Shown piece by piece: positions 10,872 to 12,670 of a stretch of DNA of 64,000 bases. Under the pieces are notes generated by a model. It was not told the origin of the DNA. It did not search any database and saw only the letters and a program-made list of their open reading frames with translations. Made by a program: the position numbers and the translations under genes. Position 1 is the first letter of the stretch. Each line of letters starts with the position of its first letter. The DNA is from Carcharhinus longimanus (taxonomy: Eukaryota): positions 27,292,690-27,356,689 of the forward strand of contig JASCQW010000122.1 of the NCBI GenBank assembly GCA_030264375.1, given 5' to 3'.

Positions 10872-11246
10872 CTGTAGAGAAAAGCAGCGGATGTGCCAGA
10901 GACTCGTCTCCAGACAGAGACTCCCCCGAGCCGGCGCTTAAAATCGAGCCGGACCGCAAAGACAAGGAAGACTCCAAAAGCCTGGAAGAGATCGTGCTAG
11001 AGGAATCGAGCGACGCAGAGGAACAAAAGAAGGAAGACAATAATAGCGAGGACTGGAAAAAGAGGGCGGAAAGTCCCGACAGAAAGCCATGCAGGAAGAA
11101 GAAAACTCGCACGGTGTTCTCCAGGAGTCAGGTTTTCCAGCTGGAGTCCACTTTCGACATGAAGCGTTACCTTATCAGCTCGGAGAGAGCGGGGCTCGCC
11201 GCCTCTCTCCATCTGACTGAGACCCAGGTCAAGATCTGGTTCCAGA
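10872..11246 (+). CDS. HMX3: HMX3 exon 2, 5' part (up to assembly gap inside the homeobox)
   Basis: Acceptor ccag| at 10871; [68 protein letters not shown] is the HMX3 homeodomain; ends at the N-run starting 11247. Confidence 0.93.
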
Positions 11247-11346
11247 NNNNNNNNNNNNNNNNNNNNNNNNNNNNNNNNNNNNNNNNNNNNNNNNNNNNNN
11301 NNNNNNNNNNNNNNNNNNNNNNNNNNNNNNNNNNNNNNNNNNNNNN
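11247..11346. other. Assembly gap (100 N, placeholder size)
   Basis: N-run. Other gaps at 18140-18283, 22641-22650, 27530-27539, 29971-30040, 44273-44338, 47497-47616, 50492-50591 and 56987-57410. Confidence 1.
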
Positions 11347-11903
11347 TTTAAAAGTTTTATTCCTGTTCTCCCCCCATCACCTCCACGGAGATTGGGAATT
11401 CCTCTGTTAAGTGGGGTGGGCAGAATTCCTTTCAATGCAGCAAGTCGCCGAGTTAACATGATTCCAGATATTTGATATCCCAACGCGGCTTCTGATGTGT
11501 GGAAGCAACCTGAACTTTTTGACAGAAGTGAGAAAAAAAAAGATAAATAAACTGGGTTGGGACTCTGGGCGTGTTTATATTTTATATTTTAAAAAAAATG
11601 TCCAGGTGGGAGAGGGTGAATATTTACGGATGAGTTAGGGAAATCAAACATTACAACACACACAGACAGTGGCGCGGTGTCTTATTCTCTTCCTTTCGCC
11701 TCTGAAGCGAGCTGAAATATTTGGTCTTCACGTTAATTTGAAAATGAGCTTCGGAGGCAGATGTTACAACATGATTCTAATTGTCCTGTTTACTTATTTC
11801 TTTGCTCATCCTTTGGAAGGGACTGTGCCAAATGTTGAAAGCTAATCCTGTGCGTTTTCTGTTTCTCTTGTTTCCCTCCCATCCCATTCCCCCCTCAAAA
11901 AAG

Positions 11904-12440
11904 ATGGAGATTTCCTAGACGGCTACAAAGCCGAGGAGTGCGAGAAGGACTTCTGCCGGAGTTTAGACGTCGAGCACAGCGAGACTCCCAGGCGAGAAGA
12001 AGCTGAGGAATACACTGAAGATAGCGGTGGTGGGAGAGGAGGAGGAGGTATCCTAACTGCTGTAGGGGAGAGGATGTCCGGGCTGGAGGGAGATGAGGAG
12101 GAGGAGGAGGAGGATGAGGAGGAGGAAGAGGAGGATGGTGGAGGTGGTGGAGGAGGAGGAGGAGGAGGGGAAAGTTTGAGCCCCTCCAGCCCTCAGCAGA
12201 GCCAGCAGGATGCCCAGCAGCAGCAGAGCCAGGCTCAGCAGCACAGGAGCAAGAGGAAGCGCAGCGGCTCGGACGCCAAGTCCGGAAAACCCCGGCGCGC
12301 CCGCACCGCCTTCACCTACGAGCAGCTGGTGGCGCTGGAGAACAAGTTCAAGTCGACCCGCTACCTGTCGGTGTGCGAGCGCCTCAACCTGGCCCTGTCC
12401 CTCAGCCTGACCGAGACCCAGGTCAAGATCTGGTTCCAGA
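11904..12440 (+). CDS. NKX1-1: NKX1-family (NKX1-1/SAX2-like) homeobox exon fragment embedded in HMX3 (probably misplaced sequence)
   Basis: Branch-like ctaat at about 11842, long pyrimidine tract, aag| acceptor at 11903. Open frame [12 protein letters not shown]... with Glu/Gly runs, then [63 protein letters not shown], which is the NK1 homeodomain. NKX1-1 vs NKX1-2 assignment is from recall of the KRKR.GSD.KSGKPRR linker. Confidence 0.8.
12093..12170 (+). repeat. (GAG/GGA)n coding trinucleotide repeat giving poly-Glu and poly-Gly
   Basis: gaggaggaggaggaggaggatgaggaggaggaagaggaggatggtggaggtggtggaggaggaggaggaggaggg. Confidence 0.9.
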
Positions 12441-12670
12441 ACCGCCGGAATAAGTGGAAAAGGCAGCTGGCTGCCGAACTGGAAGCGGCCAACATGAGCC
12501 ACGCGGCTCAGAGGATAGTCCGGGTGCCTATCTTATACCACGAGAACTCGGCTTCGGAGTCTGGGAGCCCCGGCAACGCACCAGTCACCCAGCCTTTACT
12601 AACATTCCCACATCCAGCCTACTACTCACATCCTGTAGTCACATCCGTGCCCCTCCTGCGGCCAGTCTGA
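12441..12670 (+). CDS. HMX3: HMX3 exon 2, 3' part (helix 3 end and C-terminus, stop TGA)
   Basis: [37 protein letters not shown]...[25 protein letters not shown] is the HMX3 C-terminus. Joining 11246 to 12441 restores an intact 299-aa HMX3 (295+375+230=900 nt). Confidence 0.93.

Follow-up and report, generated by a model that had tools for sequence, protein, structure and literature searches.

An apparent NKX1-1/HMX3 hybrid homeobox in the Carcharhinus longimanus assembly is very probably a misjoin through a shared helix-3 word

RESULTS

The HMX3 locus and the foreign segment in its second exon

The window, a 64,000-nt stretch of the 2.68-Gb Carcharhinus longimanus assembly (G000:C122:27.29-27.36 Mb), holds the homeobox genes HMX3 and HMX2. 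HMX3 was compared with its counterpart in Mustelus asterias, a 299-aa Nk5/Hmx protein (XP_078080499.1, hereafter P0139), and its parts and the DNA lying among them are as follows.

10478..10772, + strand: HMX3 exon 1, 98 codons plus 1 base with the phase-1 donor GTAAGG; 98/98 residues identical to P0139
10773..10871, + strand: HMX3 intron 1, 99 nt, frame-preserving, GT..AG, with an open frame
10872..11246, + strand: HMX3 exon 2, 5′ part to helix 3 (KIWFQ plus the first Asn base), ending at a contig end
11219..11246, + strand: shared 28-mer, HMX3 copy, ending at the gap
11247..11346, no strand: 100-N gap, by gap statistics likely an unsized placeholder
11347..11903, + strand: very probably misplaced piece 1, 3′ end of NKX1-1 intron 1; acceptor AG at 11902-11903, single copy, phase fitting the exon-1 donor on scaffold C1
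11904..12440, + strand: very probably misplaced piece 2, 5′ part of NKX1-1 exon 2, homeobox to helix 3; matches NK1 proteins and is missing on C1
12413..12440, + strand: shared 28-mer, second copy and NKX1-1 to HMX3 switch; the true switch may lie up to ~12449
12441..12670, + strand: remainder of HMX3 exon 2 (3′ part), closing with the stop codon; agrees with P0139 residues 225-299 at 75/75 positions

Leaving out the insert, the HMX3 exons add up to 295+375+230 = 900 nt encoding 299 aa plus a stop codon, a length shared by most of the shark and ray HMX3 proteins listed, and in comparison with seven 299-aa relatives the two flanks join with zero residues lost or gained. The exon-2 front is identical to P0139 residues 100-223 at 122/124 positions, and the 75 residues of the tail recur unchanged in five of the six other 299-aa HMX3 proteins and at 74/75 in the remaining one. 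An HMX homeodomain in front of the insert, an HMX3-specific tail with the ...LLRPV end behind it and an adjoining HMX2 thus assign both flanks to HMX3. While exon 1, front and tail are the same as in P0139, the assembled exon 2 differs from it in that helix 3 runs into a gap and then foreign DNA, and in having Ile for the conserved Ser at residue 200. An earlier note, made from the letters of the window, had held that cutting out 11247-12440 gives a clean 299-aa HMX3; the length and the stop codon are as claimed, but the product is not quite clean, as the codon at 11174-11176 reads Ile (KRYL-I-SSER) where 136 of 137 HMX3 proteins have Ser, the motif being missing in one. This codon lies 70 nt from the contig end and is possibly a sequence error or a real variant. 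The 99-nt intron is absent from the 299-aa relatives, and in a Heptranchias gene model (P0012, 331 aa) the corresponding intron is translated as coding sequence.

Both ends of the insert carry the same 28-mer, exactly at the positions given by the earlier note (11219-11246 and 12413-12440), and the identity cannot be extended leftward. The first copy abuts the first N of the 100-N run. Exactly two copies occur in the 2.68-Gb assembly, both in the window, against a chance expectation of 7e-8, and two is the number expected from two normal genes. Since the HMX3 and NKX1-1 proteins both continue N-R-R, the shared stretch has at least 28 nt and could run up to 12449 (37 nt), an extrapolation given that the NKX1-1 continuation is absent from the assembly. 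The HMX3 homeobox does stop before the 100-N gap as previously noticed, with the correction that the Q of WFQ is complete at 11245, and the Asn codon begins with 11246. Behind the gap, the intron-like DNA earlier put at about 560 nt with an acceptor at 11903 measures 557 nt (11347-11903), ends in a pyrimidine tract and AG, and is followed by an exon from 11904. The NK1 homeobox was also correctly described as running in frame into the HMX3 tail: the ORF 11846-12670 encodes an NK1 homeodomain front and then the HMX3 tail ending ...LLRPV. The right junction alone lies within a contig; at the left junction, which is the 100-N gap, 11246 and 11347 are unconnected by sequence. Words from 11347-12700 were found in 22 sequencing runs, at least half of them in six runs, with no RNA run among those listed, and by such word shares the joined and unjoined forms are indistinguishable.

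Elsewhere in the window, an HMX2-like gene with a 10-N gap near its start occupies 22638-24579 on the same strand, ~10 kb 3′ of HMX3, and an exon with a WD40-like frame lies at 47617-47806, which we take to be BUB3, the usual HMX2 neighbour. CpG density is 10-48 per kb in positions 1-29000 and 3-16 per kb in 29001-64000 at similar G+C, a contrast such as a low-methylation domain at developmental genes would produce.

The insert corresponds to a part of NKX1-1

The insert proper (11347-12440, 1094 nt) spans the 3′ end of intron 1 and the first part of exon 2 of NKX1-1, the intron assignment of 11347-11903 being inferred from its contiguity with the exon. All 11 protein matches to 11903-12292 are elasmobranch (shark and ray) NK1 proteins: nine carry the name NK1-related protein 1, another is called ‘related 2-like,b’ and the last is hypothetical. 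The homeodomain front of the insert is identical in 9/9 aligned relatives, and the insert shows no decay relative to them. Compared with NKX1-1 of Mustelus asterias, an Nk1 protein (XP_078054483.1, hereafter P0006), it is 87.5% identical over residues 159-213 and 97% over residues 228-302. The insert therefore has both an NK1 homeodomain and the NKX1-1-specific exon-2 front, and together with an exon 1 and a C-terminus found on scaffold C1 it matches P0006. It departs from P0006 behind WFQ, where the assembled homeodomain ends in the HMX3 tail rather than in NRRTKWKKQNPG, the NK1 tail that follows the NK1 front in 11/11 relatives. The first 704 nt of the insert (11347-12050) are single-copy in the assembly; a homeodomain query at E 1e-15, which gave the self match alone, adds nothing to this. 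NKX1-2 was rejected as the donor: it is intact on C122 at 29.03 Mb, 1.7 Mb off, and is different DNA.

No hybrid of HMX3 and NKX1-1 was seen in any relative, i.e. among 120 HMX3 proteins (the matches listed, of 217 in all) and the 11 NKX1-1 proteins. An HMX front with an HMX tail was found in 119 of the 120, and one was truncated. HMX3 of sharks and rays forms a cluster of 19 proteins with at least 90% conservation, and 14 of the 15 listed are 298-300 aa long. No report of an NKX1/HMX3 hybrid turned up in the part of the literature that our search covered.

The NKX1-1 locus on scaffold C1 has a hole at the corresponding place

A search of the own genome with P0006 located NKX1-1 at G000:C1:22.155-22.159 Mb, on a separate scaffold from HMX3. 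Residues 1-159 of P0006 matched C1:22158794-22159258 and residues 331-414 matched C1:22155035-22155286, each at 95% identity, while residues 159-303 were matched solely in the window and not at C1. The C1 locus hence consists of exon 1 and the last 83 codons, with intron sequence and a 1095-N gap (C1:22155286-22156380) between them. The 463-nt exon 1 on C1 has a phase-1 end, and when its last base is joined to the acceptor of the insert the reading agrees with P0006. The check proposed in the earlier note, whether the NKX1 locus elsewhere lacks the segment, thus has a positive outcome, the segment being single-copy and the C1 locus having the 1095-N gap.

The other feature that the note proposed to look for, an orphan RRTKWKKQ tail, is absent. 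The NKX1-1 codons for RRTKWKKQ were found nowhere in the assembly; two patterns matched just NKX1-2 and one chance match, and the loose RRTKWKKQ-type pattern gave two matches (NKX1-2 and the non-homeobox chance match) versus two in the control. About 13-38 NKX1-1 codons after WFQ are thus missing from the assembly. The 1095-N gap ends in a glycine-rich stretch, 20 residues before a conserved LSP, and the flank behind it has 73% G+C. By all 11 relatives, the insert plus the missing codons would require at least 1133-1208 nt, so that the gap is 38-113 nt (3-10%) short and the close match of 1094 to 1095 is partly a coincidence. No overlap between the insert and the edges of the C1 gap was detected in 30 kb, nor any for the intron part in 230 kb, and the fit of the insert to C1 therefore rests on position, size and splice phase.

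An HMX1-like gene accompanies NKX1-1 on C1, and NKX1-2 accompanies HMX2 and HMX3 on C122. According to PMC2211742, NKX1-1, HMX1 and NKX3-2 are linked on human 4p, and NKX1-2, HMX2 and HMX3 at 10q26.13; the shark linkage fits this arrangement.

Gaps and their edges in the assembly

In the 464 kb around and including the window, 93 gaps were counted, N makes up 6.5% of the sequence and the contig N50 stands at 6.8 kb; 39 of the 93 gaps are of exactly 100 N. Counting as an edge repeat any repeat of at least 20 nt at 90% identity that touches a gap edge, we found edge repeats at 7 of the 39 100-N gaps, that at 11247-11346 counted, versus none of the 54 others (Fisher p 0.0016); on 230 kb of C1 they occurred at 2/9 100-N gaps versus 1/40 others. 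A length of 100 N thus probably marks contigs whose spacing is unknown or negative, which leaves the left side of the putative insertion without sequence support. Five of the seven repeat-edged 100-N gaps are simple end-to-start overlaps, so the pattern at 11247-11346 is atypical of 100-N gaps. Among the sized gaps on C1, 1 of 37 (1108 N) has a 25-nt end-to-start overlap; gap sizes can accordingly be wrong, and the 1095-N gap is of this sized kind. As the overlaps at gap edges range from 8 to 89 nt, neither k nor the assembly program can be named from them. At two other 100-N gaps (G000:C122:27411763 and G000:C1:22239293), one edge matches sequence 1.8-2.1 kb into the contig across the gap, over 117 nt and 61 nt, respectively, which may reflect similar misjoins or ordinary repeats.

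Words shared among other homeoboxes

Among 28 homeobox stretches of the assembly, 6 of the 378 pairs share exact words of at least 28 nt. The five pairs other than NKX1-1/HMX3, with words of 28-59 nt, look unbroken by eye, and so a shared word alone is insufficient for a misjoin in this assembly. Judging the families of the others by their motifs, NKX1-1/HMX3 would be the sole cross-family pair of the six. By eye, and not as a formal test, no other hybrid homeobox was seen among 26 translated loci of 87 matches.

Three homeoboxes (L029, L031 and L033) have exact words of 32-59 nt in common and distinct tails, and are presumably MSX-like by their motifs; another three (L020, L030 and L032, on C122, C166 and C1) we assume, likewise by motifs, to be NK3-like genes. 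Scaffold C1 further carries an intact HMX1-like gene (L017, G000:C1:116.84 Mb) and, 85 kb away on the same strand, a second and more divergent Hmx (L027, 116.93 Mb), the latter in our assumption SOHo/Hmx4-like.

DISCUSSION

A probable misjoin through the helix-3 word

On the evidence of the assembly, the hybrid is very probably an assembly error, in which a piece of NKX1-1 would have been joined to the HMX3 tail via the helix-3 word that the two genes share, and in the animal itself HMX3 is likely a normal gene for 299 aa and NKX1-1 a normal gene of two exons. The switch lies in the shared word and the presumed donor has a hole of about the size of the insert. Once the pieces are put back, the HMX3 parts tile P0139 and exon 1 on C1 fits the insert in phase, with the codons after WFQ still missing. 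The misjoin of NK-class paralogues through helix 3 that the earlier note preferred is thereby supported, the C1 gap lying where the single-copy segment belongs; its wording of an exon ‘inserted’ to give a ‘chimeric homeodomain’ is not supported.

The shared word has two entries in the assembly, one from HMX3 and one from NKX1-1, and the HMX3 exit as its only exit: the path from NKX1-1 runs out into the HMX3 tail, that from HMX3 breaks off on the word, no NKX1-1 exit (RRTKWKKQNPG...GGG) is present and C1 has a hole. We infer from the 73% G+C of the C1 flank and from the glycine run in relatives that the GC-rich, glycine-repeat NKX1-1 exit may have been poorly covered, and its loss would have left the word with two entries and one exit. 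An assembler or gap filler could then have matched the wrong entry to the single remaining exit, and a scaffolder could have placed the genuine HMX3 5′ contig next to the chimeric one, spacing them by a default of 100 N. The missing NKX1-1 exit is thus likely an extra cause besides the shared word. Chimeric contigs between paralogues are repeat-induced misjoins of short-read assemblies. The present case is like them in its switch within a shared word, a contig end on that word, a gap of matching size at the donor and a missing GC-rich exit, and unlike them in joining two different homeobox families that have only helix 3 in common.

Alternatives to a misjoin

Recombination between NK-cluster paralogues, the alternative raised in the earlier note, has nothing in its favour beyond one contig junction, with donor and target on different scaffolds. 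One real event of this kind, highly improbable in our view, is that a copy of the NKX1-1 segment, a circle of ~1.2 kb, entered one HMX3 allele through one crossover within the shared 28-37 nt. Two copies of the word would result, the reciprocal junction (from the HMX3 front into the NKX1-1 tail) would lie concealed in the gap, and the two copies of the segment would collapse in the assembly so as to leave the C1 gap. The layout of word, insert and word would be the product of a single crossover, a collapsed duplication would likewise give one assembled copy and a hole on C1, and with both introns in phase 1 a splice from HMX3 exon 1 to the hybrid exon could be in frame. However, it would take a rare event between scaffolds, with very little homology to work on, and would disrupt a gene of at least 90% conservation; no hybrid was seen in the 131 relatives examined (the HMX3 ones being the matches listed), the insert has not decayed relative to them, and the contig ends exactly on the word in an assembly full of unsized gaps. 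As for a second copy or reciprocal product, the assembly holds one copy of the insert and no NKX1-1 exit, and a collapsed copy could hide.

Cut-and-paste or reciprocal exchange, by which the NKX1-1 homeobox would have been lost to the HMX3 locus, would account for the segment being missing from the C1 sequence and found only in the window, and we give it a negligible chance. By usual scaffolder practice, the sized 1095-N gap implies DNA of about that length between the C1 flanks; moreover, no reciprocal product exists, the NKX1-1 exit being nowhere in the assembly, and two conserved single-copy regulators would have been broken at once.

Because sharks are known to have a fifth, shark-specific Hmx gene, as stated in PMC10696661, another Hmx was considered as the source of the tail. 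HMX1 and other Hmx genes were rejected in this role, since all 75 tail residues agree with HMX3 and the HMX1-like gene is intact. The related proposal, that the contig 11347-18139 is real and misplaced and carries an NK1-like gene with an HMX-type tail (of HMX1 or the shark-specific Hmx), is next to impossible, for although that fifth Hmx gene would lend it a candidate, the tail is at 75/75 residues that of Mustelus HMX3 and differs from the tail of the HMX1-like gene, which is intact on C1, and HMX3 beside HMX2 would otherwise have no tail.

Implications

Were the hybrid true, two families that are otherwise unchanged across sharks and rays would have had halves of their homeoboxes swapped in nature, and phase-1 splicing from HMX3 exon 1 would yield a transcription factor whose homeodomain starts as NK1 and whose ends are those of HMX3. 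On the misjoin reading, it is most likely not a real feature and unimportant as biology. Since both introns are in phase 1, gene prediction could nevertheless produce an in-frame HMX3/NKX1-1 hybrid, and a single misjoin would thus give rise to two false claims, a hybrid gene and the loss of the NKX1-1 homeobox. The assembly would then misrepresent both HMX3 and NKX1-1, and both loci would need correction or masking before use in homeobox inventories or studies of gene loss.
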